64,000 bases of DNA from a virus. The notes under the pieces were generated by a model, which was not told the DNA's origin, did no database searches, and saw nothing but the letters and a program-made list of their open reading frames with translations. Of the stretch, positions 9,372 through 64,000 are shown piece by piece (within the stretch, counting starts at the first letter, position 1; every line of letters starts with the position of its first letter). The position numbers and the translations under genes were made by a program. The stretch is taken from positions 35,960 to 99,959 of the IMG/VR virus record IMGVR_UViG_3300023502_000001; one strand, written 5' to 3'.

Positions 9372-9806
9372 TTAATCCCACCAAGTTCTCATACGCTCAA
9401 ACTTAAGTTTGTTGTACAAGTACCAGGATTTTTCTCTTCTCAAAGAATCTTGGAGAATAGGTTCGCTCCAATCGAGATCAGCAGCTTTAGGACGGAATCG
9501 TTTCCAATTCTTAATGTTTATGTGCCTATCTACAAATCCTTTAGACCTAGGTCTGAAATCACAGTGGTAGGCAGAATCTATCTCTAACACAATGTCCAAG
9601 AGTCCTAGTGCTAGTTTTAGATCCCTTTCAACAAATTCATTACCTTCAGCAATTCTGGATACTTTGAAATATTCATACATCCTGATTAAGGCTTGCTTCT
9701 CTAGTGAGAGCACGAAACTATAATCAAACGGATAGAACTTCATAGCCTCTTTAATGAGCTTCTTGTTCTTACTCTTTCTTAGTTTCATATTCTTGACTTG
9801 CTTCAA
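9372..9806 (-). CDS. hypothetical protein
   Basis: 144-aa ORF. Confidence 0.55.
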   Translation of the reverse strand: MKQVKNMKLRKSKNKKLIKEAMKFYPFDYSFVLSLEKQALIRMYEYFKVSRIAEGNEFVERDLKLALGLLDIVLEIDSAYHCDFRPRSKGFVDRHINIKNWKRFRPKAADLDWSEPILQDSLRREKSWYLYNKLKFERMRTWWD

Positions 9807-10227
9807 CTGCTAATTTATCTGCGAGATTATTCATCTGAGAAAAGAAATCAGAATTGGAGGTATGTCCTTTTACCCAACAAAAGTTTATACTAGGACAGAA
9901 TTTTTCTGCCTTTTCTAAAACCTTGTCATACAAATTCCATAGTTCCACATTCTTTTTCCTTTTCCATCCTTTAGTAGCACATCCTATAACGTACTGAGAA
10001 TCTGAATAGATAGTAAGAGATTTAAGTTGACTGCTTACTGCATTAAGGGCATATATTACTGCTAACAACTCACATTTGTTATTAGTAGTATTAGGAATCA
10101 TTTTGCTAAATTCATAGACTTTTTCTCCATCAATTACAAATACGACTCCTACCCCTCCAGTGTTTCTAGACGAACTAAAAGCTCCATCAGTGAAGACTTC
10201 TAGAACCTTATTGGATTTCTCCATCAC
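9769..10227 (-). CDS. rnhA: ribonuclease H
   Basis: 152 aa; RNase HI motifs TDGAF, NNKCELLAVIYAL, YSDSQYV, KGHTSNSDFFSQMNNLADKLA. Confidence 0.75.
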   Translation of the reverse strand: MMEKSNKVLEVFTDGAFSSSRNTGGVGVVFVIDGEKVYEFSKMIPNTTNNKCELLAVIYALNAVSSQLKSLTIYSDSQYVIGCATKGWKRKKNVELWNLYDKVLEKAEKFCPSINFCWVKGHTSNSDFFSQMNNLADKLAVEASQEYETKKE

Positions 10228-32994: not shown

Positions 32995-33519
32995 TTAATT
33001 AAAATAGTATTTTCCATCCTCAAATTTTGAAATTCTCACCCTTTCCCCTCCCTTCAAAGGTTTGTTGTCCTCTGGATAGGCGGGAAGTTCCTGCAACATC
33101 CCATTTATCTCTATTAGCAAGATAGAATGAGAATTAGGAAGATCATTAGGGATTGAGATAAATCCAACTCTTCCGACTAAGGCTTCGCCTTCTTCTGGAA
33201 TAACTTGATGCTGGAGTTTTAAACAAAGTTTATATAAGTAGTAAAGTATAACCACAAAAAGAATACCGCACACTAGTGCGATTAGATAGTCGTACCATTC
33301 TACAGAATGAGATATAGACTGCTTAATGCAAAGCCATCCACTTGCTCCCATTACAAAATGTACTAGTCCTTTAAAAGAGACAATATCACTCACATCCATG
33401 TCCAATTCTCCATCTAAATCTACATCCAAGTCAGTGTCGCCACCAAACCAAGAGAGTATGAACTGAACAATAAAAATGCCATACGAAATGGCTGCTAAGA
33501 GATAATAAGTTTCGCTCAT
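32995..33519 (-). CDS. NfeD-like membrane protein (flotillin partner)
   Basis: 174 aa; N-terminal TM helices plus C-terminal soluble domain; sits immediately upstream of the flotillin gene as in yuaF-floT operons. Confidence 0.55.
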   Translation of the reverse strand: MSETYYLLAAISYGIFIVQFILSWFGGDTDLDVDLDGELDMDVSDIVSFKGLVHFVMGASGWLCIKQSISHSVEWYDYLIALVCGILFVVILYYLYKLCLKLQHQVIPEEGEALVGRVGFISIPNDLPNSHSILLIEINGMLQELPAYPEDNKPLKGGERVRISKFEDGKYYFN

Positions 33520-33734
33520 TGTAATTTACATAACCCTCCTTGAGTCGTATTATGAAGTACGTAATACACTCTCCCAGGAACGGAGACTCTATAGACATTC
33601 ATGTGACTATTAGGGTCGGTATATACCTTTATAACCGAAAAATGATTTCGGTCTTCCCTAGAAGTAAACGAACAACAGACTGCCGTAACTATTGCTACAA
33701 CAGCCATCATACAAATTAATCTAATTCTCTTCAT
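33516..33734 (-). CDS. small secreted protein
   Basis: 72 aa with signal-like N-terminus. Confidence 0.45.
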   Translation of the reverse strand: MKRIRLICMMAVVAIVTAVCCSFTSREDRNHFSVIKVYTDPNSHMNVYRVSVPGRVYYVLHNTTQGGLCKLQ

Positions 33735-33929: not shown

Positions 33930-34322
33930 TTATAATGAAACCTTATATTTATCCCAATCACTGGTTAATGTCAAGGCTCCTTTAACATTTATTTCACTTG
34001 AGGGAATCTCATACATGTCCCCAGTTATAACTACTACAAATACTACATCACAAGTAGAATTATCAAAATGTCTAATCTTAGAATCTCCAGATGAACCTCC
34101 GCAATTCTTCAACAAGACTTCATAATTTCCACTCTTTACCTAATGTTGAGTAGTTTTAACTGATACTCTCTTCAAACCCTCTTTATCTACTACAATGTCA
34201 TATTTCTATGTATCATTCAAGGGAATTAGGACCGGAATGCAATGAGCAGTATAGTATGCTATAGCTCTTCCTAGTCCTAAATTCCCTTGATGAGATTTAT
34301 ACTAACTTTCCCAAGCGTTCAT
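33930..34322 (-). CDS. hypothetical protein (TAG-recoded)
   Basis: track ORF 33930..34115 extends upstream through 3 in-frame TAGs to MNAWES(Q)YKSH...; about 131 aa; fills a standard-code ORF gap. Confidence 0.5.
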
Positions 34323-35292: not shown

Positions 35293-35853
35293 TTAGTCTA
35301 ACCATTCAAATTCTTCACCCTTGAAATGTCTTGCAAAACAAGCATCGAACACTAGCTTTCCAAACTGGGTTGATACGTATTTGGCAATTTCTTCAGATTT
35401 GCACGCTAGCATCCCGACACTGGAAGCGGCACCGCCGACGCCATCGTCAGAATGGAAATAGCTGAGACCCGCATTGCCGCCATAAAACGCGAGGCCGCCC
35501 ACCAACGCGAATTTCTCGCCCTGATAACGGAAGTGTCCAATGACCTCTGCATCTTTCGGCACTGATTTCATTCTAAAGAACCGAACCCAAGGATACCATA
35601 CAGTTCCAGTCAGCAGATTGAACTTGTGCTTTTCGTTCAGCGCATCCAGAATTGTTTGCAACTTAGCTAGAGCCTTTACAGATTCAGTGTAATGGATTTC
35701 ACTATTAAATAAGTACCCAAGATAGTCTCTAGCGTCCTCATAGGTCTTTATTCGTCCCATAATATTCTCTGGAACAATTTCAACATTACCTGTTTTGGCA
35801 TTGTAGATAGGCTTGTAGCCATCTGGACATTCAATTTCAATAGTTCTTTTCAT
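35293..35853 (-). CDS. hypothetical protein
   Basis: 186-aa ORF. Confidence 0.6.
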   Translation of the reverse strand: MKRTIEIECPDGYKPIYNAKTGNVEIVPENIMGRIKTYEDARDYLGYLFNSEIHYTESVKALAKLQTILDALNEKHKFNLLTGTVWYPWVRFFRMKSVPKDAEVIGHFRYQGEKFALVGGLAFYGGNAGLSYFHSDDGVGGAASSVGMLACKSEEIAKYVSTQFGKLVFDACFARHFKGEEFEWLD

Positions 35854-35958: not shown

Positions 35959-35964
35959 ATCAAA

Positions 35965-36420
35965 TTATTCGAATAGCGGCAGCAACTTCTTTCCTAGTAT
36001 CTTCACCGCTTTCTGTACATCAGCTACAGTTCTAAAATAAACAACACCTGGATATTTTACGTTTTGATGCATAACGACGTACACTCCTTTTATATCAGTT
36101 TCCGTCTTTCCAGATAGAGAAGAACCCCTTCCAAGGAAATAACCGCTGTTACTCTCTGTTTTATTCCAACCATTGTTTAAGTAATTAGCTACTATTTGTA
36201 GACAAATTAGAGACTTAGTTTGCTCTGATATCCCTAAAGGTAAAAATAGCACATCCCAATCCTTTTCAGATTCTAATATTTCTCCAAGAGAAGGGACTAG
36301 AACTTCTTCACTAAAAGCGGTAAGAGCTAATTTTTTCAAGTCTTCATTGCCACTCTCATACCATTTACGTGCTTGTTCTAAAGTTACTTCAAGGCAAGCT
36401 TTTGTTTTAATTCCGTTCAT
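35965..36420 (-). CDS. hypothetical protein
   Basis: 151-aa ORF. Confidence 0.55.
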   Translation of the reverse strand: MNGIKTKACLEVTLEQARKWYESGNEDLKKLALTAFSEEVLVPSLGEILESEKDWDVLFLPLGISEQTKSLICLQIVANYLNNGWNKTESNSGYFLGRGSSLSGKTETDIKGVYVVMHQNVKYPGVVYFRTVADVQKAVKILGKKLLPLFE

Positions 36421-38822: not shown

Positions 38823-39782
38823 TTAAATATGTTCTTCTGCTATTAACGCATTTCCGCATGTGATTCTGTCTGAATCTTCTTCCTTGGATGGGACAAATAC
38901 TATTACATCCCAGCCTTCTTCCAATAATGGCTGTTCAAACATGCGGTAAACATTGTAGTCAGAATAACCAGTAACTTCAAACCCGTTCTCGATGGCCGAT
39001 GCTGTCTCATGTATTGGAGTTATTTTAACAATGAATTTATCCTTGTCAAATAAACTTGTCAATTCCTTTGCATCGAGTATAGTTTGTGCGGTTACTGGAA
39101 AGTTTAAAGTATACTTTCTGCCCTTAGGCATAGGTAACTTGTCAGCAATTTTGGATATTGCAGATAATGAAAGACTCCTAGAGTCAAATAACTCTAGCCT
39201 CTGCTTATCACTTGTGGAGTTGATGGATAACTGAAGACCTGCTTCTCCTCCATACAAGTCATTCTTAATACTACACCAAACATGAAGAAAATTCTCCAGT
39301 TTTGTATTAGCTCTCGGAAGCATAGTAGATACTACTGGATGTACTGTGTCAGCTCGTAACCCGCATCTTCTTACTACTCCTTTAAGGGCTATTCCAAATG
39401 CTAACACGTCTTGGTTCCAAGTCGGTTCTCCCATTCTTGCAAAGTGTACATTAAATCTTTCGGTGTATCGCACACTTTCGTTCTCTATAATAGTTCGGAT
39501 TTGTCTTTCCATGTCTTCAATAGAAGCATTTCCATAAAATCCGAACTTTGGGACGTCGCAGAATTTGCAGTTCATAGGGCAACCTTTCTGAGTTGAGATT
39601 GTCGCAACCCACTTCTTACTTAGGTTAACCTCAGTATTAGCCACTCCGTTAATCTCCTTAGTTAAACCCAAGAAGTTTGCCTTGATATTGTTCTCTTTAC
39701 CATAGTCTCCTACGGTTAAGAACTCTAATTTATGCTCAGTGTCAACATAAATCTTTCCTGTGTGAGTTAATATTGTTTTCAT
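38823..39782 (-). CDS. radical SAM enzyme, RlmN/Cfr-like RNA methyltransferase family (putative)
   Basis: 319 aa; CxxxCxxC cluster GCPMNCKFCDV plus MGEP motif (FARMGEPTWN) reminiscent of RlmN GMGEPL. Confidence 0.55.
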   Translation of the reverse strand: MKTILTHTGKIYVDTEHKLEFLTVGDYGKENNIKANFLGLTKEINGVANTEVNLSKKWVATISTQKGCPMNCKFCDVPKFGFYGNASIEDMERQIRTIIENESVRYTERFNVHFARMGEPTWNQDVLAFGIALKGVVRRCGLRADTVHPVVSTMLPRANTKLENFLHVWCSIKNDLYGGEAGLQLSINSTSDKQRLELFDSRSLSLSAISKIADKLPMPKGRKYTLNFPVTAQTILDAKELTSLFDKDKFIVKITPIHETASAIENGFEVTGYSDYNVYRMFEQPLLEEGWDVIVFVPSKEEDSDRITCGNALIAEEHI

Positions 39783-40059
39783 TAATCCTCAATCATTTTC
39801 CACATGATAATTATTACTATAAATACTGCTATGTACATGGCACAATTCTCCAGTCTAATCTCCCTCTAGTTATACGAAATTTGTCAGCTTCTGACCAGCT
39901 TCGGAAAGGTCTAATAACCTTTCCATAGCCGTCCAATAGATAGTATTTCATAATCTATAAGTTCTCCATTTATGTGAATTGTACACAACGCTATATCTCC
40001 AACAATTATCATAGTTTCCACCATGATTATATTATTGTTAATCTCTGTGGTTCTTCTTA

Positions 40060-42848: not shown

Positions 42849-43136
42849 GTAACGGTTGTTCTTATCTTGGGAGTAGGAGACCTAAGTCTCCCAGTATGCA
42901 CAATTGTTTCTCAACAACCTGCACCACTATGTACGATAAAAGAAGATGAATTATCCTGTGCCTACAATCATTTAAGATTGTCTTCGATTGTTAGTACAAT
43001 CTCACAATACTTTGCCTTATCTCACGATAAGACACCTCTATTCATAAGAGATGCTCTGCATTAGTCTCAGGGCGTACCCATTATAATCTTTAACTGCAAC
43101 AGAGTCTACAAGTAGTTGTAGTCCTCAAATACCAAG

Positions 43137-43207
43137 TTCCCCATTCTGGACTCGAACCAGAATCTCCTTCTTTAGAGGAAGGCGCAATAGCATTATACTA
43201 ATGGGGA
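43137..43207 (-). tRNA. atypical tRNA-like gene (anticodon loop CTAAAGA, reads AAA), possible pseudogene
   Basis: acceptor TCCCCAT/ATGGGGA and T-arm TCTGGTTCGAGTCCAGA are good; D-arm weak; A34 is unusual. Confidence 0.3.
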
Positions 43208-45598: not shown

Positions 45599-45670
45599 TG
45601 CCCTATGGTGTAATGGTCAGCACAGATGACTCTAAATCATTTAGTCTGGGTTCGAATCCTAGTAGGGCAA
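45599..45670 (+). tRNA. suppressor tRNA, anticodon CTA (reads TAG), Gln-derived
   Basis: hand fold: acceptor TGCCCTA/TAGGGCA, discriminator A, D-arm GTGTAATGGTCAGCAC, anticodon stem GATGA/TCATT, loop CTCTAAA (C34 T35 A36), T-arm CTGGGTTCGAATCCTAG; near-identical architecture to tRNA-Gln(TTG) at 30395..30466. Confidence 0.75.
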
Positions 45671-45687
45671 CTCCAAAATTAATAGCT

Positions 45688-49768: not shown

Positions 49769-49979
49769 TGAGAAAGTTTATTTCAAACCTGGGGATTGTG
49801 TTACTTTACGGTAGTGTAAGGTAATGCATTCTCCAGTAATGCTTGTTCTGAGAAGAGAATCAGCATTATTTAAAGATAACCAGGGATTGCGCGGACTTAG
49901 ATGTAGATGGTTTACTGATTCTGGACTGATGCAAGAAGCAGTATTTAATACAAAAGACTTAATTAAAGTAGAAGAATAA

Positions 49980-51193
49980 TGGCGAAAATACAATTTGATC
50001 CAGAGTTAATGTAGCATATCAAGACTATATATGGAGACGCAGAGTTAGACGGAAGAACTTTACAACAGTTGCATTAGACTTGGCAAAGTAATCCGAACTC
50101 TATTAGAAATACTGCATAGTAGAAGAAAAGAAGTGCTGTGCCAGCTATACAACAAAAACCTATATTAGGATTAAAGCTGTCTACTCCTACTATTCCTAAA
50201 AAAATAAATGCACCTTAGCAACAAATTCAAAACGACGACTTAAGAGGAGTCTAGGGGTTTGGTACGGCATTTAGAGAAGCCAGAAAGAGAGGACTAACTC
50301 AATTCAAATGGGGGAAAGGAGTGTATGGAACATAGTTAGCTAATGGAAAGAAAGCAACAGTAGAGGTAGGAACTCCAGTAATGAATAATCCCTATGTTAC
50401 ATATAGTCAAGACGGAAAAAGAGCTACTACGTACCAAAATCAAGTAGACTAGGAAACTGGAGAGCATACTGGAACTATCCAAGAACAATGGATAAAGCCG
50501 CCTACAACTAATATGTATGGGCAGAAACTAACTCCAGAATAGCTCAAAAATTAGAGAAGTTGGGAACATATACCAAAGGCAACTGCTAGATAGCAACGAG
50601 TTAAATATCAACAAGGAGGAGCAATGGCTAATTAGGAAGAATTACAAAAAGCATTTATGGCATACTTAATACAGGATGCCGCAGCACAAGGAATACAATT
50701 ACAATCTGAGTAGGATTTAGAACAATATGCTCAGCAATTAGGAGAAGACGGAATTAAAGCCAAATACCAGGAATTTATGCAAAAAATGCAAGGTGGGGTT
50801 ATGGCTAGATTAGGAGCTAAGCTTGAGTACTATAAAAAATTAAAAGGAGTTTGCCCAGAAGGGGAAGAGCTTGTTTATTTTAAACAAGGAGGGAGAATAT
50901 GTAAAGCCTGCCAGAAAGCTTAGAAAGGTGCCAAGGTAAAAGGTAACGAGGTAGACAAATTTAAGAAAGGAAGAGCACAGTATAAGAAAGATATGAAATC
51001 AGCGAAAGATGAAGCTTCTAGAGATTCTATATCTATTAATAAGTATAATGATTAGGAAACCATGTCTAATAAAGGACATAAAGGAAACTTCCAAAAGGGA
51101 AAATGGGTTCCTGATAGAAAGCAATATACTAAAAAGGATGCTTGTGGCTCTAAAATGAAAGTAAGCAAGTGTGGCTCTAAAATGAAGAAGTAA
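49980..51193 (+). CDS. Gln-rich hypothetical protein (TAG-recoded)
   Basis: about 404 codons open when TAG is sense (about 17 in-frame TAGs), terminated by TAA; MAKIQFDPELM(Q)HIKTIYGD... Confidence 0.6.
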
Positions 51194-51226
51194 GAAAAGA
51201 TTGTCGAATGTTAATGATTAATGATT

Positions 51227-51817
51227 ATGAATGTATTTAACTATAACACTTTAACTAAATAGTTAGAAATAAATGAACCAGAGATTCTTCTAGTTAAAGA
51301 GTTCAAAGCTTTACTACAAAGAGATAAATCTGTGGAAAAGGATAGAGCAATTAGAGAACTATCATACATTTATTTAGCTATTGATTGGAAGAGTCCGTAT
51401 AGCTAGTACTCTGAATATGAAAGGCACGATGAAGCAATTAATGATTCTGGATTAACAGAATCAGAATTTAATGATCCGATATTTAGGGAAGCATGTAGAA
51501 AATATAGAGCATTATAGGACTCAAATAAATCAATTAAATTATTAGAAGCTGCTAGAAGAGCTGCTGACTAGTTTATTGATTACTTCGATACTATTGTAGA
51601 CTTAAATGAACGTGACACTAATGGAAAGCCAGTATTCTCTGCTGAGAAAGTAATGAAGGAAATGGCTAGCCTTCATAAAGTTCACGAAGAATTAATTACA
51701 TTAGAAGATGAGGTTAAAAAAGAACTTACTGAATAGTCTACCGTTAGAGGAGGGGCTACAGATGGTTTTGATCCCGGAGAATTTTAATTATGCCAAGAAA
51801 GAAAAAGATATTACCTG
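51227..51817 (+). CDS. hypothetical protein, possible terminase small subunit by position (TAG-recoded)
   Basis: about 196 codons, 4 in-frame TAGs, ends TGA; directly precedes the terminase large subunit. Confidence 0.45.
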
Positions 51818-54150
51818 ATGAACTATAGACTATAGTAGATTAGGTAAGAGAAAAAGAACATAAAGAAGATGCTGTAGAGGCAAGAGAGCTAGTATAGAAA
51901 ATAAGAGAAGAAAGGGTCAAAAGTGCAGACTATTGGGATGTCAAGAAAGGAGACAAGATAGATGTTTTTGACCCTACTTTGTCTTATGAGATAACTGGCT
52001 ATAGACCTATTGATGAAACGCATGGTTTGGACTTTAATCCCGAATGGTTCACCGAAACCAGAGAAGTATACAGAAAGACTGGGAAGTATTGTCCCTACTT
52101 AAAAGACAGTAAGAGATACAATGAATTTTGGAAAGAGTAGTACAGAAGATGTAAATATGGAATGACAGTTAATGGTTATACTATTACTGGAGATAACTAT
52201 TTCTTCTTAAATTTCTATTAGCTTCCTATTATTGATGATAATAAAGCATCCGGTGAAGGAACTAATAGTGACTTCCCTATATTCTTTGCATCCCATTACA
52301 TGTTCTTCCATTACTTACAAATGGCTAGAGTACTACATAGACATGCAGCTTTAATGAAGGCTCGTTCAATCGGATTCTCAGAAATAAATGCCTCACTATC
52401 CGCTCGTATGTATTCTGTAATTAGAAGAAGTAGAGTAATGATTACTTGCTTTAATGATACCTTCCTTAAAGGTACATTTAGTAAGTTTGATAATGCTCTA
52501 ACATTTTTAAATACTTGCACAGGTGGAGGATTCTTTAAGCTTCGTCTAATTGACCAGGATTTAAGAAAGAAGTCTGGTAAGTAGGTTAAAGTAAACGGAT
52601 AGTTTGAAGATGTTGGATTTAAATCAGAAGTAGTAGGAATAAATGGAGCTAAACCATCTAATATTCGTGGAGACCGTGTTGACTTATTAATATATGATGA
52701 AGCAGGGTCTTGGCCAGGATTAGATACTGCTGTGGTACAAGGACAAGAACTTTGTGAAGTCTAGGGTAAGCCTCGTGGAACAATGTTGTTTGGAGGTACT
52801 GGTGGTGATATGGGTGCTCCATTAGCAGGTCTTAAAAAGATTTACTATAATCCAAAAGCTTACAAAGTTCTTCCCTTTAGACATAATTATACTCAAGATG
52901 GGACTACTATTGAGAGTGGATTCTTTATTCCATATTTTGTACAGTCTTTGAACTCCGAATACATGGATCATAGAGGTGTATGTAATACCGTAGAATATAA
53001 GAAGTATCTGTAGGAAGAAAGAGATAATCTATTAGCAGTACCCGATGACTATTTAAAGAAGTGTGCTGAACGTTGTTGGAATGCAGAAGAGGCCTTCAAT
53101 CTAGAAGGTGTTAACAAGTTTAACAAAATTCTTATTTCTGATCAATTAGCTAATATAAGACTAAAGAAAATAGGTCCCAGACCAGAATGTGGTTATATAG
53201 ATTACTTCTATAAAAATAATAAACACACTGCTGATAACATTGATGGATTTAAGTGGATTCCTAATACTAAGGGAAAGGTAAAGATTCTGGAACATCCAGT
53301 ATGGTCTGACCTATATAAGGAGTAGATGGATAAACTTAGATAGGAAGCAGAGGAAAGAGGAGAGGAATTTGAAGCACCTGTATATAAAGAAATGCATAAT
53401 CTTTATATTGCAGGAATAGACGGTATTGATATAGGAGCTAATTAGACCTCAAAGGAAACTAAAGATCCTTCTGACTTCTGTATAACTATTAAGAGAAGGG
53501 CATTTGGTATGAGTGAGCCATAGTATGTAGCAATGTATAAGGACAGACCTGGAGACATTCGAGAGGCTTACAAAATAGCTATGTGTTTACTTAGATACTA
53601 CAACTGTAAGGTAAATATAGAAGCAACCCGTGTTGGTATGATTACCTGGGCTAGAGAAAAGAAATGTTTGAATTACTTTATGAAACGTCCTAGAGCTACT
53701 CTTACTGATGTTAAAAATGGAACTACTAAATAGTATGGAACTCCAGCTACTAAAACTATTATAGAACAACACACTGATCTAACTGCTGCGTTTGTGGAAG
53801 ATTATTGTCATACTATATGGTTTGAAGAAATGTTGGAATAGCTTACTGGATATAATGACGAGAATAAAGGTAAGTTCGATATTATAGCAGCTATGGGTAT
53901 GACAGAATTAGCAGATGAAGAGTTGTCTGGAAGATAGCCTATAGTTGTGGAAAAAGAAGTTGAATTGTTCAGGGATTTTGGTTATTATTACGATGAGAGA
54001 GGAATAAAAAGATTTGGAGTTATACCAACTAGCGAAACTCCAGAATTAAATATGCAAGACGACGAATACGATGACCCATACAGAATTGAAACAAGTGATC
54101 CTAGAGTATATGAGAGACTTATACCAAATGGAATATATAGGCGGACTTGA
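51790..54150 (+). CDS. terL: terminase large subunit (TAG-recoded)
   Basis: about 786 codons in one frame joining track ORFs 52300..52584, 52783..53013, 53533..53733 and 53947..54150 through in-frame TAGs; ATPase-like RGDRVDLLIYDEAGSW and nuclease-like LYIAGIDGIDIG / DIIAAMGM segments. Confidence 0.6.
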
Positions 54151-54347
54151 GATTGAGGATTTGAATCCAGTTGGTTACAAAATATCTTTTAACTTTGACA
54201 GGTCTGAGATGCCATTAGTAATCATAGCTGATTTACCCGATGATGAATTTCTGCCTTTTATTAAAGAAGAATTAAGAAGTAGGAAGTTATAGAGAGTTAA
54301 GTATTATAACGCCACTAAGCTTCCTCCAGAACAACATAATACATGTT

Positions 54348-56519
54348 ATGAAAGAGAAAGAATTGATAGACAAAACAAACGAGGCTATTGCGGAACTTGT
54401 GTATGATAAATATGAGCTTTAGAAAGCTTATAATTATTATAATGGTAAAAGAGATCCAGAATAGTTTCGCTATCTTGAAGAGAATTTTGGAATAGGCAGT
54501 CCTACATCAGTAGAATTTACACCACTACTTAAGAAGCATGTAGATGCTTTAGTAGGGGAATATCTAGGAACTCCAATACTCCCGAAAGTCTCTTGCAAAG
54601 ATTCAGATACTATCAGTAATATAACCAGAGAAAAATAGCTAGAGATAACTAAAGGAATAGTTAAGTTTTTAAAAGATCACTTAAGTAATGCTATCTTAAG
54701 CTTTATTGACGGAAAAGATATTACTGATAAAGCTGTAAAGACTCAGCTAGATAAGGTTATATAGGATATTGATTAGTCATTCATTTCTCAGTATGAAATT
54801 GCTGCGCAGAACATTATTCACTACCTAATGCAATCTAGGGAAACTGATCTTATTACTAAGTTGCGGTAGTTATTAACTGACTTACTAATTACTGGATACA
54901 CATTCTTTAGAGTAAAGTCTTCTTTCTCCGGAACTAATGTGGAGATAGAGGTTCTTAACCCGTTAAATACGTTTGTTGATAGAAATCCAGAATCTCCATA
55001 TGTCAAGAAATCATATAGAGTTGTTATTAGAAAATGGATGAGTAAAAGCCAAATACTAGCTAAGTATGGTAAAGAAATATCTAGAGAAGACTTAAAGAGG
55101 TTAAAAGATGAATGGAGAGCAGATGATTCTGCTGCTGTATACAGAAGAGTTTATGGAGATGTTTGTACAGTGGTTAATGAAGATCAAAATCATGAGACCA
55201 TTCCTGGGTATCCAGATAATGAATATAGTGCTCATAGATTTTAGTTAATTCCGGTCTACGATGTAGAGTGGATAGAGACTGATGATGATTTCAAAATGCA
55301 GAGATACAATACTATAAGGATAGGAGAGGAAATCTATATTCTTAGAGGATTAGACAAGACTGCAATGAGGTCTAAAGACGATCCTAACTCTTGTTCATTA
55401 TCAGTAAATGGAGTTTATTTTCTAAATCGTTCTCAGTAGCCATATTCTTTAATACTTAAGTGTGCACATCTACAGGATAGATATGACTTACTTAACTACT
55501 ACAGAGACAACTTGATAGCTAATAGTGGAACCTCAGGAGTTATTATGGATATGTCATTACTTCCTACTAACTTAGGAGTGCATTGGCCAGAAAGAGTATA
55601 GAAATGGTTAGCTTATAAAAAGGGTGGTATTATGTGGATTGATTCCACTTAGGAAGGAAGAAATGATGGAGCGCAGGCACCTAACTAGATATACAATGGA
55701 TTTGATGATACCCTTAAAGCGTAGGCTGTATAGGCTATTGAGTTAGCTATTCAATCAGTAGAATAGACTACATCATCTATAACTGGAGTATTTAGGGAAA
55801 GACTTAATGGAATAGAGACTCATGATGCTGTAACTAATATTAAGCAAGGAGTAGCTAATTCTTATATAGTAACTAAACACTACTTCCAACAAATGGATTT
55901 AATAACTTGTGAGATATTGTTGGATAGTCTTAATCAGGCTAAAGTAACTTACAAGAAAGGATTAACTGGAACCATTATATTAGGAGACAAGTATTAGCAG
56001 ATATTTACTGCACTTCCTGAATATTTCACAATGACTGATTTTGATATTCATATAACCTCTAGCACTGAAGTTATGGAAGATCTATAGACTATTAAAGCTA
56101 TGATTCCAGAGTTCCTTAAGAGTTAGTAGATGGATGCTGGTATAGTTTTTGAAGCATTAACAGCTAAGAGTTTAACAGACTTAAAGTATAAGGTTAAGAA
56201 AGCTATGTAGGTTTAGAAGGAAGAGAACAATCAATTACAATAGTTGTAGCAGAAGTTGGAGGAAACTTCATAGCAAGCACAACAATTACAATAGGAATTA
56301 GAAAAAGCTTAGTAGAAAATAGAGAGGTTAGATGAACAAAAACTTGGACTAGAGCAATAGAAAATGCAACTCGAATACAAGGTTAATTGGCTTAAAGCCC
56401 AATCAGATTCTACTTATAAAGATAGACAAATGGATATTGAAGAGAAGAGAACTGAAATAGAATTAGCATAGCTTCATGATGGAAATCCATATAACGATAA
56501 AATAAGACAAATACATTAA
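54348..56519 (+). CDS. portal protein (putative, by size and position; TAG-recoded)
   Basis: about 723 codons in the frame of track ORF 54939..55244, many in-frame TAGs, ends TAA; follows terL. Confidence 0.45.
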
Positions 56520-56520
56520 T

Positions 56521-57390
56521 ATGGCTACAGCAGGTACAATAGTATATAATAAAGATTAGCAACAAATATATCCAGTTTCTCATGCAGAGGTGGTAATTAG
56601 TAATGCTTCTGGAAGTAAGTCAGACGTGGAAGACAACCTTATAAAATTATGGAAAAAGGTCTCAGAATTAAGTGGAGACTAGGAAGCAGCTAGTAATATC
56701 ATGGTAGTAGTTACTTATTGTAAAACAAATACCAGAGATGAATCTGAAGTAAGAAAGTTATCATCATGGAGTGATATTTTTGAACTACCAGACTCAGAAA
56801 GACCATATGTTTGGAAGAAAACTTTATATACATATAAAGGAGACACAGCTAAACTTAATGAGATTTACGAAATTGTTGCTACAGATATTGCTGAAAAAAT
56901 TCAGAATATCTATATTGCAAGATCAACTGGGGTTGCTCCAGTTATTACTTATCCAATACTAACGGATGGATATGGAGATCCTATATTAGACTCTGAAGGA
57001 AATACTTAGGAAGATTTGACTGCTTTTGATAAAAAATTACCAGAAGGCTGGTCAGAAACTCCAGTTAGTATTGGTCCAGCTACTCCATATGTATTTATAT
57101 CAACACGTAAGAGAGTAGAAGGATTATGGAAAAGATATTCTGAACCAGCTCAATACGGTAGGTGGGCATTCGACAGTTAGTTAGAGTTACGATATACTAT
57201 TACTTCTGGAGATAAACCAGCTGTTAATACTACAAGTGATGATCCAGGAAGTTAGTGGTCTAGTGATACTCCAGATAGTTTTACTGGAAAAATGTGGATG
57301 ATTACTGCAACATCAGTAAATGGAGTATTGAATAGTGATGAAAACAACGTTAGATGGCATGGTCCTCATTTGATGTCAATTATACAATAA
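56521..57390 (+). CDS. virion-associated hypothetical protein (TAG-recoded)
   Basis: about 289 codons incl. track ORF 56701..57009; stop overlaps next start (TAATG). Confidence 0.5.
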
Positions 57391-58121
57391 TGGAATTTAG
57401 TATTGATATACATACCCAGATTACTGGGGAAATAACTATTGAAGACTTCTCTAAGGAATATGGATAGTATATTGATGAAGATTTAGAAGTAGTAACCTCT
57501 TACGACTCTTATAAGTACAGTGAGAGTGCTACTCTAAATACTATCATCAAGGTAAGTATAGGAGATGCCACATTAATAGATGTCCTTTTAAATGACCATA
57601 CAGAAGATTTAGATTCCTGTACATTTAAAGTAAAAGAGGACGGATATTATGTGGTAGATCATATAATACTTCCTAATATGAAGTGGTATGAAAATTCATC
57701 TGATGAATATAAGGAATACTACGAAACTATCTATGTTACAGATGGGGAGAAACTATATAAAGAAGTAGAAGGAGAGTTAGAAGAGTGTACAGTAAAGGAA
57801 ATTCTAGAAAGAAACATAGAAGGCACTACTATCAAGAAATGTAAGGTCGATGTATTCTTTACTGGGAATTTACAATAGTGCTATATTAATTATTGTAAAA
57901 AATTATTTGATGGTCTCCTAAATAAATGTGTTACCAATGAACATGAGGCAGATATTTTTGCTAGAGATTTTATTTGGATGACTCTCAACATTATAGATTA
58001 TTTAATAGGCTTTAAACAATTCATGGAAGCCGAAAGATTGCTAGCAATGTTCCGCACTTGTGGAGGATTCTGTAACACTCGCTATCATGGACATAAACAT
58101 ATAAGTTGTGGATGCTCTTAA
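57390..58121 (+). CDS. hypothetical protein (TAG-recoded)
   Basis: about 243 codons incl. track ORF 57651..57878; C-terminal Cys/His-rich tail. Confidence 0.5.
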
Positions 58122-58276
58122 AAGAAAGGCTATTAAAAGGTACGAAGAGTTTCTTGGAAGAATTAAGAAAGGATATAGACCAGATTATCAAGATATTTTG
58201 AATTTAATCTGTTTTATTAATCTACCTGTAAAACTAGATAATCACGAATTTATTAAATAGCAACTATTAAATCATA

Positions 58277-59866
58277 ATGATACAGCCTATTTACACTTCG
58301 GTAAGCAATGCTGATATAAAGCCTTGTGGAAAGAAAGGACATTTAATAAAAAGTGAGCCTATACCACTTCTAAGAGATAATTACTTAGGAGAATATAGAA
58401 CAGAACTAGAAAGAGCTAAGGTTAGAAAAAACTTAGGAATTGCTGATGAGTAGAGTCTTCTTTGGGGAAATATTAGTGGAACCATAGAGGCTTAGAAAGA
58501 CTTGGTTTAGTATATTGAACAAAAATGGACATATACTAGCGATGTTGCAGAAAATATTAACACCGTAAAAGATGCATTAGACTATGCATTATTTTTTATT
58601 AGTTAGTATGAGGCTAATACTGAGGAAATAGAAGAGATAAAGGTTGATATAAGTAATATTAGGACTAGTATTTAGGTATTAGGAGAAGATCTGAAAAGAG
58701 AGATTGATACTAATAGGGAAGGACTAAATAACTTATCTTAGGATATAATCGAAATTAATTAGGCAATATCAGACCTCAACACTGCTATAGAAAATATAGA
58801 TGTTGATAAGAACATTCTTAATTGGATTAAAAACAACCTTTAGAACTCTAAGACTGTAGAGATAAAGGAGGATAATACTATAGAAGTCATTCTTTCTAAG
58901 TAGGATAATAATGCTATTCATTTAATCGAATAGGAATTACCTCCTACAGAAGAAGGAGAGGAGCCTTCTACTATAACCCTTCCAGGAATTTATGTAAAGA
59001 ATCTAGAACCTTAGTTAGAAGAAGCTTAGAAATCTATAGGAGAAGTATAGAAAGCTCAAGAAGAGACTAATGAAAAGGTTAGCACTAATAGCGAGAGTAT
59101 TACAAATATCTAGACTAGTCTAGAAACTATAGCTACCTATTAGACAGAACTTCCTGATGATACAACTTCTACTGTTATAGAAGGTACTACCGTTGAAAAA
59201 TTAAAAGGGAAACCATTTAATGAAATCATAGATACTTTACTATTCCCAACAGTAGTTAGAGATTTAATATATCCATAGTTGTATTATAGCTTTGCTTCCC
59301 AAATTGTGGAAGTAGGAACTGCGCTACTAACTCCAACCTTAACTTTCGTAAAAAATGATGCAGGAGAAGAAACTGACAGAGAAGAAGTCATTACTTATAA
59401 CGGTTCTCCTATAGAGTCTGTTACATATGATTCTATTGGGATTTATACTCATTCTGGTACAGTGAATTATGCTGCTGGAGAATACTTAGTAAACAATAAG
59501 GGAGAAGTTACAGATAAAAGGGTGGAAGCTGGTTCTATATCAGCAACTGCACAAGTAACAGCTACTTATCCTTGGTATTCTGGAAATACTGATGGATTGA
59601 TAAAATAGTCCCTAGTTCCATTTAATTAGGCTTCTGGCACTATTACATTCTCATTAAGTGGTAAGGCTATTATAAAATTACCAGGAAGTAATACTCAGCT
59701 AAATTCCTTCACAGTAGATGGAGGATTGGGATATTTGAATGTCGATTTAAATGGTTGGGAAGCTTCTACTGAACAAATAAATGGATTCCCATATAAAGTA
59801 TGGACTAAGAAGGATACCTACTCTTCAGCACTGCCTCACCAAATTAACTTTATTCTATCACAGTAA
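58277..59866 (+). CDS. tail fibre-like protein (coiled-coil N-terminus; TAG-recoded)
   Basis: about 529 codons incl. track ORF 59279..59608; extended Q/E/L-rich heptad region then beta-rich C-terminus. Confidence 0.5.
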
Positions 59867-61734
59867 TGGCATTTAAATATACAGGTGATGCTACCCTAGG
59901 TGTTGGTTTAACCGTAGAAACTCCGAAGCCTCTGGATAATAGAACAGTAGTTGATAACCTAGAGGAGCTATATTCTATTCCAGAGAAATATGCTTATCAG
60001 GGCATGACCGTATCTAATATAGATAACGGAAATATTTATATGCTTATTGATAAGTCCAAGATTAAATATAAAGAAGGATGGAAAGCATCTTATGAGTCTA
60101 TCCAGATAATAGCTTGTACAGAAGCTGAATATAAAGAATGGTCTGCTAATACTACAGAAAACTTTAAACCAATAGATGAGAGTAAAACATATCTTCATGC
60201 TGAAACATATTATTATATATATGAGGACAGCCTAGATGATAATTAGTTTTATCTATCAGCAGAATGGGGTAAGAAAATAGAAGAGTAGTTAAAGTAGAAA
60301 GCTCTTAATACTACAGTTGTATAGATTAGAAATGATCTAGACCAGACTATTTAGAATCTTTCTAAGTATGCAACATTAGAAGAATTAACTGCCAACTATG
60401 CTCCTAAGACAGACCTAGATTTGGAAGATCCAGAATCCCTTTTATCTAAAGCTTTATCTAATCACTATACTAAGTAGGAAACAGATGATATATTTGTTAC
60501 TAAGGAAAGTCTTAGAGGAGAAGGAATGGAAGGAGATGATTTCGTCTTTGTTACTAAAAAACAATATGACGAAGACTAGTAGGCTATCCAGAGTGAATTA
60601 GATAAGACTTTAAAAGTAGATGGGGATGGTTCTCTAGAAAGTATTACTGTAGGATAGATAAAATCTCCAGTAATTGAAGGAGAGGATTAGTTAGTAGTAG
60701 ATGTTAAATCAGACGGATTGTTTGTTGGAGAAGATCAATTTGCTATGATGTCTGATGTTCCAAATTTAGTTACATTAACTGAAGAGGAATATTTAAAACT
60801 GGTAGAAGATGGTACTCTAGAACCTGACACATACTATTATGTGTATGACGTGACAAATGACGCTAAAGTCTATATTACTAAAGAGTATCTAGATTAGAAT
60901 TACCATACTACTCATTAGTATTAGTCATGGGTAGCTACCAACTACTACTCAAAATCTCAGATTGATGAGATCGTTGCTGGTTTACAGAAACTTGGGAGCT
61001 ACGTCACTACAGAAGATATTAAAGCATATTACACTAGTCAATAGGTAGATGAAAAGTTTCTTACAAAAGAGAATGCTCAATCTACATACGCTACCTAGCA
61101 GTCGTTAACTGAGCTGTCTGGATAGATAGCAGAAGAGTATGTAACAAAGGATAGTTTGAGAGGAGATTCTCCCGAGACTGGTGATGATGACTTTATATTT
61201 GTTACTTAGAATAAATATCAATAGGATTAGACTGCTGCTTCCCAAGAATTTAATACTAAGCTATTAAAATCAGAATAGATAGAAACTTCTGACATTACTA
61301 TTTAGAAAATTGTAGAAAAAGAAGTACAATAGGGAACAACTGAAGAAAGTCCAGGAGATATAGTAATAGAGCAAACTATTGAAAGCTCTGTTAATCTTAC
61401 TACTAAAGATAATAGGTTATTAGCATCAGGTAAACAAGTTGCTCTTATTGAAGAAGTTCCAAAATTAGTATGTTTACCTTAGACTGATTATGATAACCTA
61501 GTTGAAAATAATAAGACAGAGAACGATACTTATTACTGTACTTACGGAGAAAAAGATATATAGGATACAGGATATGTTAGAAGCGAATATCTTACTGAAA
61601 AGTACTATACTAAAGCAGAGGTAGAAGCTTTGATACAGGAAGCTGTAAGCGAATTATAGAAAAAGATAGATGCAATATAGCCTGGTTCGGGCAGTGCATC
61701 AGTAGATGAATCAAATGAACAATTAATATTTTAA
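59866..61734 (+). CDS. tail fibre-like protein with two tandem repeats of about 120 aa (TAG-recoded)
   Basis: about 622 codons incl. track ORF 59866..60246; repeated blocks KESLRGEGMEGDDFVFVTKKQYDEDQ... and KDSLRGDSPETGDDDFIFVTQNKYQQDQ... Confidence 0.5.
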
Positions 61735-61739
61735 ACAAG

Positions 61740-61949
61740 ATGGGAACAATTTATATTGACGGACAGTTTAAAAGCTCTGCTAAGCCTGTAAAAGTTGTTG
61801 GTGGCAGTGTAGGAGGGTCTGGAGTAGATCCTGATACTCTCAAGAACTATGCTACTAAAGCAGAACTTCAGAAAGCTGTTGAGGACTTAACTGCTTCCAT
61901 AGAAGGAATAGATCATGATGTAGTTGAAGAAACTTTAATAATATAGTAA
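61740..61949 (+). CDS. small hypothetical protein
   Basis: track ORF 61740..61946 reads through TAG to TAA. Confidence 0.4.
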
Positions 61950-61950
61950 T

Positions 61951-63771
61951 ATGGCAGCTATCAAATCTATAAAGGTAGGAGAAATTACATACGACTTAAA
62001 GGCTACTTATGATGGTTCTGGCAACAATATTGCCGAGACCTATGCTAAATCTAGTGCTATTCCGACTAAAGTATCATAGTTAAGTAATGATAAAAACTAC
62101 CTAACAGAACATTAGGACATTAGTGGTTTAGCAACTAAAGAATAGATAGACGAAAAAGTAGACAAGGAATTAGGAAAAGGTCTTTCTGAAGCTAATTATA
62201 CTGAATTAGAAAAATAGAAGCTTTAGGGTGTAGAAGATGGTGCAAATAATTATGAACACCCAACTACAGCAGGATACAAACATATTCCCTCTGGAGGAGC
62301 AGCAGGATAGATTTTAACTTATTCTAATGATGGTACTGCCCAATGGGCAGATTCTAGCACTAAGTTAGATTAGCAATTCTAGGCACTTAATGAGGCTTGG
62401 GAAGAACTTCAGAAAGCTTAGCAAAATTTAGATAGCTAGGTAACAGCTATGACTAGTAACGCAGATCTTTACTCCTATGGAGTAGAATGGGATATAACTG
62501 TATCTTCTCCGGTTCTCACCAGAATTGGAAACCCGTTACTGCATAAATCACTTCCTATTCAATCTGCTTATAGAGGATGCGTAGCCAATGAAGCTAATAT
62601 AAACTATTTCTTACATCCAGATAATTGGGCTTATAAGGAAGACGGTACTACTCCCTCTGTGCTTGATGGTAGTGAAGGAACTGTTAGGGTTAACACTCCT
62701 AAGTTCTATGGTAAGTCTGGTTCCAATGGAAATAAAAGATGGGTAAGAGAATCAACTGTTAAGATAGACGACTCTTGGGTTGAAATACCGGAATTGTTAA
62801 TTGATGCATATAGAAGCACAGTTGATACTACAGTATCTGCAACTCCAAAGGCTGTATCAGTAGTTAATACTACTACAGCATTTAGAGGAGGTGGAAATAG
62901 AGCATAGTTCGACGAGTACTTGACTACTGAGCTGGAGACTAAAGATATTTTCAGAAGCGACTTAGGAAAACCAAGAACGAATATTTCCAGAGCCACAATG
63001 AGAACTTATGCTACAAACGCAGGTTCTGAATTACTATGTTACGAATATTACAAGTGGATATTCTACTGGAATTATGTAATAGAATATGCTAACTTTAACT
63101 CTTAGGCTACATATGAGGCAGAGCTTACTGCTGATGGCTATCATTAGGGAGGTCTTGGACCCGGAGTTACGGATTGGAGTAATTCTGCCACAAGTTGGTC
63201 TGGATATAACGGAACTTATCCTCTTACTCCATGCGGTCACTGTAACGATATTGGTAACTTCACAGGAGTTAAAGATTTAGTTATCCCAGGATGCACTGCA
63301 ACAGATGGGACTAGTATAGTAGCTACTCATACCTTTAAAGTACCACGTTGGAGAGGCTTTGATAATCCATTTGGAGACATTTGGACAAACCTAGATGGAG
63401 TAGTTATTCAAAGAACTGCAGCGAATGAAATAAGTAGTGTATATACTACCACAGATAAAGCGGAGTTTACTGACGTAATTGGCAACAAGACTATAGCCGG
63501 ATACGAGGTAGCACAAGATGGATACATTAAAGAGTTTGATTTAGGAAAGACAGCGGAGATTATACCATCTTCTTGTACTGGAGCTTCAATTACTACTTAT
63601 ATGTGTGACTACCACTATTGTAACGCTAGCTCTACAGCGCTTCGCACGCTGCTGGTGGGCAGCAGCGCGATTAGTGGCGGCTTTGCGGGTCTCGGCTATT
63701 TCTATTCTAACTTTGGCGTCGGCGCTGCCAATTCCAATGTCGGGTTCAGAACTCTAAATAGAGTATCTTAA
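61951..63771 (+). CDS. tail fibre protein, DGR target (C-terminal variable region; TAG-recoded)
   Basis: about 606 codons incl. track ORF 62449..62907; collar-like motif YEHPTTAGYKHIPSGGAAGQILTYSNDGTAQWA; C-terminal 99 bp form the VR of a DGR. Confidence 0.65.
63649..63747 (+). repeat. DGR variable repeat (VR)
   Basis: 99-bp match to 63852..63950 with 21 mismatches, every one opposite an A in the downstream copy. Confidence 0.75.
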
Positions 63772-63851
63772 GATATAAAAATATAAAAAATCAGTTTAGA
63801 TAATAAACTGTAGGATATTACTTCTAAAAACCGTTGATTGGCAAAAAAGAA

Positions 63852-63950
63852 CTGCTAGTAGGCAGCAACGCGAATAATGGCAGCAATGCAGGTCTCAGCT
63901 ATTTCAATTCTAACAATGACGTCAGCAATGCCAATTCCAATGTCGAGTTA
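63852..63950 (+). repeat. DGR template repeat (TR)
   Basis: non-coding copy downstream of the target gene; adenines at all 21 variable positions; would encode an Asn-rich (AAY) peptide, as is typical of TRs. Confidence 0.75.
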
Positions 63951-64000
63951 TTATATATTTAGAAACAATTTTAATTTTTACCTTATTTAGTTTGCTAAGT

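Follow-up and report, generated by a model that had tools for sequence, protein, structure and literature searches.

Evidence for an active diversity-generating retroelement with two targets in an amber-recoded crAss-like gut phage

Diversity-generating retroelements (DGRs) that lack the accessory protein Avd have already been published for amber-recoded 'zeta' crAss-like phages, and so have distal second variable regions (VRs) for Bacteroidota phages. DGRs are reported in 18 of 43 zeta crAss-like genomes, with amber codons in 7 of the reverse transcriptase (RT) genes, a GxxxSQ motif and mostly no Avd (PMC12386605). The same report describes ctoVY1, cthgQ11 and 3717_85572 as genomes of 182-189 kb with 24-27 tRNAs, a tRNA(CTA), amber suppression, a DGR and an RT of 414 aa (PMC12386605). 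The hosts it predicts for this related group are Phocaeicola, Prevotella or Lachnospira. Membership of this Crassvirales-related group, for which the name Echekviridae has been proposed, is defined by a genome of 145-192 kb with crAss-like TerL and portal proteins. Distal second VRs near counter-defence genes have been described in four prophage species of Bacteroidota phages (PMC12629997). Here we analysed a stretch of 64,000 nucleotides of the IMG/VR virus record IMGVR_UViG_3300023502_000001 (positions 35,960 to 99,959 of that record; hereafter the window), close to the 3′ end of which a repeat pair had been predicted to be the VR and template repeat (TR) of a DGR. We are highly confident that this repeat belongs to an active DGR of an amber-recoded crAss-like gut phage of ~185 kb, most like the published zeta group. 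The prediction is borne out by mismatches confined to TR adenines, by an RT gene adjoining the TR and by hypervariability at the positions of the TR adenines.

The pair is the sole long direct repeat found between 62000 and 64000, with a length of 98 nt, an offset of 203 and an identity of 82%, the two copies being separated by a gap of 104 nt:

63649..63746, plus strand: VR1, about 33 variable-region codons (LLVGSSAISGGFAGLGYFYSNFGVGAANSNVGF) near the C-terminus of the tail protein, with A-only mismatches to the TR
63852..63949, plus strand: TR, non-coding, with 30 adenines; read in the VR frame it has ten AAY codons, and in sibling genomes the RT open reading frame (ORF) comes immediately after it

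A base-by-base count gave 18 mismatches in 98 nt, or 19 with the inclusion of position 99, where 63747 is C and 63950 is A. Every one of them has an A in the TR and a G, T or C in VR1, and the number of non-A mismatches is zero. The TR contains 30 adenines per 98 nt (31 per 99 nt), and the hypergeometric probability that all 18 mismatches would fall on these is 4.2e-12. The original prediction of a 99-bp repeat with 21 A-type mismatches was thus right about the adenine-only rule but too generous in its numbers, since the homology extends over 98 nt and the figure of 21 took in positions 63748 and 63749, which are situated beyond the homologous stretch and have no adenine of the TR opposite them. 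Read in the VR1 frame the TR gives LLVGSNANNGSNAGLSYFNSNNDVSNANSNVE, with ten AAY codons for Asn, which is the Asn-rich peptide that had been anticipated.

Further copies of the TR were sought on both strands of the whole window by a scan that used only the 68 non-A positions of the TR and a threshold of 70%. Three sites were recovered: the TR, VR1 and a minus-strand segment at 35411-35508 that matches at 64 of the 68 positions. The core of this segment represents a second variable region:

35413..35504 (TR index 4-95), minus strand: VR2, 28.3 kb from the TR, on the opposite strand and in the same frame as the TR

Within TR index 4-95, VR2 shows 21 mismatches, and 21 of 21 are at TR adenines. 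These data bear on the possibility that the repeat is an ordinary degenerate, tandem-like duplication, A-biased by chance or through AT pressure on the non-coding copy. The genome is indeed AT-rich (35.8% GC), and A is more frequent in the TR (45% GC) than in the coding copy, VR1 (57% GC). However, AT pressure would also have given T, while 18 of 18 mismatches have A in the TR (P = 4e-12), and the third copy obeys the same rule although it is located 28 kb away on the other strand.

Evidence for activity of the element comes from a comparison of assembled genomes and not from reads of one population. An exact 54-mer (63942-63995) was found in five IMG/VR contigs of 115-186 kb, here called siblings, and the exact sharing spans the last 54-58 nt of the window. 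Four of the five contigs extend upstream of the 54-mer and have 96-99% identity with the window in that part. Apart from one T>C exchange (contig 059915) the TR does not differ between four sibling contigs, while VR1 is different in every sibling contig. In an alignment of five genomes, TR adenines account for 20 of the 25 variable columns within 63640-63760 (120 nt); outside this stretch, the gene containing VR1 (target gene 1) has 22 variable columns in 1707 nt. The same picture emerges from the proteins. Among 118 full-length homologues of target 1, an entropy above 2.8 bits (11-15 residue types) is reached only at the ten TR Asn codons, with the TAT and GAC codons varying less, and in 120 homologues of the protein containing VR2 (target 2) entropy exceeds 3 bits only at these ten codons. 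In both sets, hypervariability outside the Asn codons is confined to TAT and GAC. At the DNA level, 34 distinct sibling VR2 sequences match the TR at 61-62 of 62 non-A positions (TR index 4-95) and show all four bases at the AAY adenines. VR1 and VR2 have been diversified independently, because they differ from each other at 12-17 positions within one genome. Contig 059915 provides a natural marker: the T>C exchange is at TR index 7, and a C is present at the matching place in both VR1 and VR2. The combination of a constant TR, variable VRs, variation at adenines only and co-transfer of a TR variant shows one-way, adenine-mutagenic transfer. Restriction of the variation to TR-adenine positions had been proposed as a check of the prediction; it is seen both in the DNA of the sibling contigs and in the homologous proteins, and the TR is invariant apart from the one variant, which was copied into the VRs of its own contig.

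An ordinary duplication would behave in the opposite way. Neutral decay should affect the non-coding duplicate, whereas here the TR is conserved and the coding copies vary, and in addition an RT gene adjoins the TR. We consider a duplication refuted by the A-only rule, the third copy, the constant TR and the hypervariability at TR adenines; its probability is practically nil.

The tip might also owe its diversity to allelic cassettes that are exchanged by recombination or gene conversion and kept under diversifying selection, with no involvement of the RT. Phage tail-fibre tips commonly recombine, and in the block 60200-60700 the siblings differ from each other in clusters of a recombinational appearance. 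Nevertheless, such exchanges cannot explain why variable columns coincide with TR adenines or why non-adenine columns stay invariant across 34-118 sequences. Nor can they account for the fact that two unrelated scaffolds with only a 37-residue segment in common (hhalign) vary at the same codons. We therefore judge this explanation to be very improbable. As to the clusters themselves, sibling differences are concentrated at window-equivalent positions 60200-60700 and 58800-59000 (contigs L002, L004 and L005), in the upstream 629- and 532-codon ORFs that have no PHROG match. The first cluster contains 26-27 differences compared to about 1 per 100 nt elsewhere. Both look like recombinational mosaicism unrelated to the TR.

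No RT motif was found in the 64-kb window; the sole open-frame [YF]xDD (~3406, minus strand) is without any other RT motif in its context. An RT had been expected just beyond position 64000, and an RT ORF does follow directly after the TR in all five contigs that contain the window end:

63950..64000, plus strand: start of the TR-to-RT spacer, with the exact 54-mer shared with the five contigs
window-equivalent 64093 (TTG) or 64123 (GTG) to ~65367, plus strand: RT ORF, transferred from contig L004 (L004:5271-6515 from the GTG)

The ORF would start ~93-123 nt past the window end, and encodes 414 aa from the GTG start, with four in-frame TAG codons. The sibling RT matches Pfam RVT_1 (8e-20) and the PHROG reverse transcriptase family (7e-110). 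It is 35% identical to Brt of phage BPP-1 (E 4e-49), with IGNYLSQ aligned with IGSLTSQ and YADD with YMDD, and 55-57% identical to the RTs of crAss-like phages. An RT of the group II intron, retron or Drt type was rejected as all scores remained far below the cut-offs (TIGR04416, 111 bits versus 300; retron St85, 72 versus 235; Drt3a, 59.5 versus 200).

Both this RT and the main target need to be read in a modified genetic code. Under the standard code the late region appears as a mosaic of short ORFs, but when TAG is read through, it becomes a row of long ORFs from 49967 to 63771 on the plus strand, which includes, by PHROG matches, the large terminase, the portal and the gene containing VR1:

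61951..63771, plus strand: DGR target gene 1, tail (fibre) protein, 606 codons with 13 in-frame TAG, the last at 63145
43136..43207, minus strand: suppressor tRNA with anticodon CTA (ARAGORN), which reads TAG and is required to translate target 1 and the RT
45599..45671, plus strand: second suppressor tRNA with anticodon CTA (ARAGORN)

In-frame TAG accounts for 129 of 4463 codons in nine ORFs of the late block, more than CAA and CAG combined, and for 0 of 4686 codons in 16 long ORFs outside it. The TAG positions align with Gln in homologues, and two of the 27 tRNA genes that ARAGORN detects in the window have the anticodon CTA. TAG is almost certainly a sense codon for Gln across the late structural block, including target 1 and the RT. 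Target gene 1 is a single ORF only if TAG is sense; in the standard code it is broken by its 13 in-frame TAG codons. Its product matches PHROG 5302, 'tail protein' (7.8e-79), and a database protein of 606 aa (P0271) equals its TAG>Q translation save for 16 residues, 11 of them inside the VR. The C-terminal 295 aa are homologous to many crAss-like tail proteins, including gp54 of the prototype crAssphage, and several of these homologues are annotated as 'similar to sulfatase, major tropism determinant'. A search of 61000-64000 for near-identical sequences among GenBank phages gave no match. The VR had been placed at the very end of the tail-fibre gene. It is indeed near the 3′ end, but LLVGSSAISGGFAGLGYFYSNFGVGAANSNVGF is followed by RTLNRVS and a stop codon, i.e. 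seven more codons before the gene ends at 63771.

Several observations weigh against an active DGR. The RT lies outside the window, and its presence in this particular genome is deduced from the siblings, which are 96-99% identical upstream and share the last 58 nt. VR1 also shows rare changes at non-adenine positions, 63653 T>G in two contigs (Leu>Arg) and 63684 T>G in one (L001, L004). Next, a C-type-lectin fold as typical of DGR targets was not demonstrated for target 1: there was no Pfam or NCBIfam match and none in PDB sequence searches, hhalign gave no match to BPP-1 Mtd, and an AlphaFold2 model from a shallow alignment was unusable (predicted local distance difference test, pLDDT, 29.5). 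The structure of target 2, predicted with confidence, matched no PDB entry, including no lectin-fold structure. Finally, a Pfam scan for Avd (PF05635) recovered none among 43 small ORFs (40 in the window and three in 13 kb downstream, contig L003), and no other known accessory gene was found. Regarding the fold, a C-lectin tip is seen in the AlphaFold3 models of PMC12386605. The changes at 63653 and 63684 may reflect either normal point mutation or misincorporation, at a low level, at bases other than A.

The missing Avd merits closer consideration. Avd is required for the BPP-1 RT, and an avd gene had been predicted near the RT here. The 104-nt gap between VR1 and TR is too short to hold one, and the scan of small ORFs leaves this part of the prediction without support. 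Either an unrecognised accessory protein exists or the RT acts alone. Avd is reported to be absent from most zeta crAss-like DGRs, and hence is not universal (PMC12386605). A 125-aa ORF matching PHROG 11557 (unknown function) overlaps the RT 3′ end (L004:6430-6810, window-equivalent ~65282-65662) and is kept after the RT in cr7_1 (48% identity, 2e-29) and in Bacteroides phage Versailles (30%, 2e-6). Its product is acidic and does not resemble Avd. It could be an accessory factor, as a candidate Avd substitute, or merely the next structural gene.

Could the element then be a fossil, a DGR that once worked and is now inactive, so that the differences between genomes are inherited alleles? The failure to find Avd would agree with this, as would the in-frame TAG codons of the RT, which are stops under the standard code, and decayed TR-VR pairs have been reported in some zeta crAss-like genomes (PMC12386605). 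On the other hand, siblings that are only ~1% different in the rest of the gene have VRs that are almost entirely different. A fossil is also at odds with the absence of any non-A mismatch in the window's own pair, with the differences between VR1 and VR2 of the same genome and with the TR point variant copied into both VRs of contig 059915. Moreover, once TAG is translated as Gln, as it is throughout the late genes, the RT reading frame has no interruption. We consider a fossil very unlikely, and an active DGR remains by far our preferred interpretation.

How such an element would operate can be sketched as follows. The TR (63852-63949) would be transcribed along with the spacer and the downstream RT gene, and the RT would copy the TR RNA into a presumed cDNA intermediate, faithfully except opposite adenines. 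This cDNA would then replace the homologous VR, so that information would flow in one direction only, from TR to VR. There would be two recipients, VR1, i.e. the C-terminal ~33 codons of the tail fibre, and VR2 in the 186-aa protein 28 kb away. The codons randomised are the ten Asn (AAY) codons and one TAT, and no stop codon can arise by mutation of AAY. Adenines before G are nearly always converted to G, thereby restoring structural glycines. The region encoded by VR1 is presumed to be the receptor-binding tip. Since the RT and target 1 both contain TAG sense codons, they would be translated only once the tRNA(CTA) suppressors act, and for this reason diversification is probably a late-infection event. 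DGR activity would in this way be tied to the code switch.

The 34 VR2 and five VR1 sequences reveal that the template adenines fall into two classes. All four bases are found at the adenines of the AAY and TAT codons. By contrast, G takes the place of the adenines that precede a G (CTA|G, GTA|G, four AGC codons, GCA|G and GAG), and of the adenine in GAC, in 85-100% of the 39 VRs, the remainder having A; C occurs once and T never at these nine positions taken together. Most of these A>G changes restore glycines conserved in both target families. Selection at the protein level was rejected as the sole cause, because three of the A>G-fixed sites are synonymous third codon positions. A rule by which the enzyme copies the previous base at all adenines was likewise rejected, since the second adenines of the AAY codons deviate from it and only the adenines before G fit. 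The error profile of the BPP-1 RT is reported to depend above all on the nucleotide 3′ of the adenine in the template, and misincorporation of C, leading to A>G, predominates, that of G amounting to 0.08% in NAG contexts; a slippage model has been proposed by which the previous template base is used a second time (PMC12875486). By analogy, this model would explain the direction of the A>G bias observed here but not its magnitude, the near-complete conversion exceeding the ~30% average misincorporation reported in PMC12875486. The template appears to be written so as to randomise some codons and to regenerate structural glycines.

Two features at the 3′ boundary of VR1 could be relevant to target recognition, the first of them a candidate for the initiation of mutagenic homing (IMH) element:

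63739..63747, plus strand: candidate IMH/IMH* pair at the VR1 3′ boundary, VR1 GTCGGGTTC versus TR GTCGAGTTA
63748..63768, plus strand: short hairpin directly 3′ of VR1, AGAACTCT-AAAT-AGAGTATCT

The G at 63743, where the TR has an A (index 94), is fixed in 5 of 5 VR1 and 34 of 34 VR2 sequences, and the homology stops 3-4 nt further on. This means that GTCGGG is fixed in the VRs versus GTCGAG in the TR, and by comparison with BPP-1 this pair of motifs is a plausible IMH-like boundary. The hairpin occupies the same place relative to the VR as the target-recognition stem-loop of BPP-1. In a DNA-fold analysis of a 101-nt stretch it had a z-score of -2.0, with 6 of 200 shuffled sequences folding equally well. 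The same analysis found no comparable hairpin 3′ of VR2, which is why the role of the one after VR1 is uncertain. A target-recognition signal common to both VRs was set aside, as the hairpin is present after VR1 and absent after VR2. A second small hairpin (63792-63810, plus strand) is also situated between VR1 and TR. A promoter and terminator scan around the TR produced consensus matches on the minus strand only, to which we attach no weight.

The second target is encoded by a small gene on the minus strand:

35293..35853, minus strand: DGR target gene 2, 186 aa, no TAG; the VR corresponds to residues 117-147 and is followed by ~39 constant residues; directly after tRNA-His

At the TAG rate of the late block, the probability of finding no TAG in this gene is 0.004, and we therefore assign it to the standard-code gene set. 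The standard-code block in which it resides presumably contains the early genes. Target 2 belongs to no Pfam or NCBIfam family; its PHROG match, 11581, is annotated as 'unknown function'. The family consists of proteins of 175-215 aa that form 208 clusters at 50% identity, and a model based on an alignment of 99 diverse members reached a pLDDT of 93.7 and a predicted template modelling score (pTM) of 0.86. When the profiles of the two target families were compared by hhalign, only the 37-residue VR segment aligned (probability 94.7%). Homologues are also present in other phages. That of Bacteroides phage Versailles is flanked by NinB-/SbcC-type recombination genes on one side and the replisome organiser on the other, and in BI-TP1 (LoVEphage group) it is found among methyltransferases, a Holliday-junction resolvase and a PAPS reductase. 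It is conceivable, though we would hold to it only tentatively, that target 2 is a new non-lectin scaffold diversified for intracellular use, e.g. as a binder or decoy against host defence proteins, and not a virion receptor-binding protein. Its location in a TAG-free block, the recombination, replication, methyltransferase and other counter-defence-type neighbours of its homologues in two unrelated Bacteroides phage groups, the failure to match any PDB structure and the restriction of the similarity with target 1 to 37 residues would be compatible with such a role.

Across tRNA-His from target 2 there is a 151-aa ORF (35965-36420, minus strand) without Pfam or PHROG match, whose N-terminus, LEVTLEQARKWYESGNEDLKKLALTAFSEE, resembles by eye an alternative N-terminus, VTLDKAKEWYNSGNAALKEVALQAFTEEEL, of the target-2 family members P0151 and P0165. 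This likeness would suggest domain shuffling in the target-2 family. The standard-code block (9769-10224, 33930-34322 and 38823-39788, minus strand) also encodes an RNase H (Pfam 2e-25), a PD-(D/E)XK endonuclease (6e-10), a radical-SAM-like protein (1.9e-5, below the cut-off) and at least two HNH endonucleases. In principle the RNase H could act on RNA:cDNA hybrids, but nothing ties it to the DGR.

The element as a whole is a textbook DGR and introduces no new principle, but it is a well-documented and clearly active example. What is added here is a second, distal target of unrecognised predicted fold, translation of the RT gated by a code switch and the distinction of two classes of template adenines. 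It also constitutes a clean natural data set, in which a single constant TR is accompanied by hundreds of variants of two VRs that diversified independently of each other. The family of target 2 (PHROG 11581) is widespread and unannotated, and several lineages of gut phages use it again as a distal DGR target, placed in a non-structural module.

Compared with the prototype DGR of BPP-1 (mtd-avd-TR-brt), the present element has in common the A-specific mismatches, a tail-fibre gene with the VR at its 3′ end, a TR just upstream of the RT and an AAY-rich template. The two RTs share their motifs and 35% identity, there is a VR/TR difference at the 3′ end of the repeat and a small hairpin follows VR1. 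The element contrasts with BPP-1 in that no Avd was found, that the 3′ boundary element is short instead of a long G/C run and that there are two targets rather than one. In addition, the RT and target 1 are written in a recoded genetic code, and target 1 has no detectable similarity to Mtd. The BPP-1 record NC_005357 annotates a 'variable region 2' in bbp36 (33229-33558), among early, recombination and replication genes; this annotation forms a curious parallel to the distal second targets here.

Among crAss-like phages, cr7_1 (NC_055895, Suoliviridae) has the same order of target, TR and RT without Avd, and a visibly homologous TR with 26 A-only mismatches. The RTs of cr7_1 and of LMMB crAssphage (PMC7290462; Intestiviridae, Suoliviridae) are the ones 55-57% identical to that of the siblings, and the C-terminal domain of target 1 shares 58% identity with the tail protein of cr7_1 and ~31% with the tail-collar fibre of LMMB. 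However, the crAss-like DGR phages of the Intestiviridae and Suoliviridae have genomes of ~100 kb and a TerL only ~26% identical to that of the window.

The window siblings, with 183-194 kb, ~27 tRNAs, a tRNA(CTA), amber recoding and ~35% GC, resemble the zeta group by published description, and the cassette shows the same arrangement of tail-fibre target, TR and RT without Avd, with an RT that has the GxxxSQ motif, in-frame amber codons and a length of 414 aa from the GTG. The window TerL has ~26% identity with Crassvirales TerL and 44% with that of an unclassified 117-kb gut phage. A difference concerns the number of targets, since the passages of PMC12386605 consulted describe one tail-fibre VR per cassette and no remote second VR in a small non-structural protein.

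For the latter, a parallel is provided by the double-VR DGRs of Bacteroidota phages, in which the second VR is likewise far from the RT cassette, among replication, recombination or counter-defence genes. These phages are smaller (58-72 kb) and use the standard code; those of the LoVEphage/BI-TP1 group are temperate, and the published account assigns the second target no fold or function (PMC12629997). Records of the BI-TP1/LoVEphage group contain three copies of the VR-like segment per genome. In Versailles (ON453897) the TR is located between the tail protein and the RT and shows A-only differences to the end of the tail-protein gene and to a small gene. The product of the latter, the second target of Versailles, is a homologue of the 186-aa protein described here, with 34% identity and, again, A-only mismatches to the TR.

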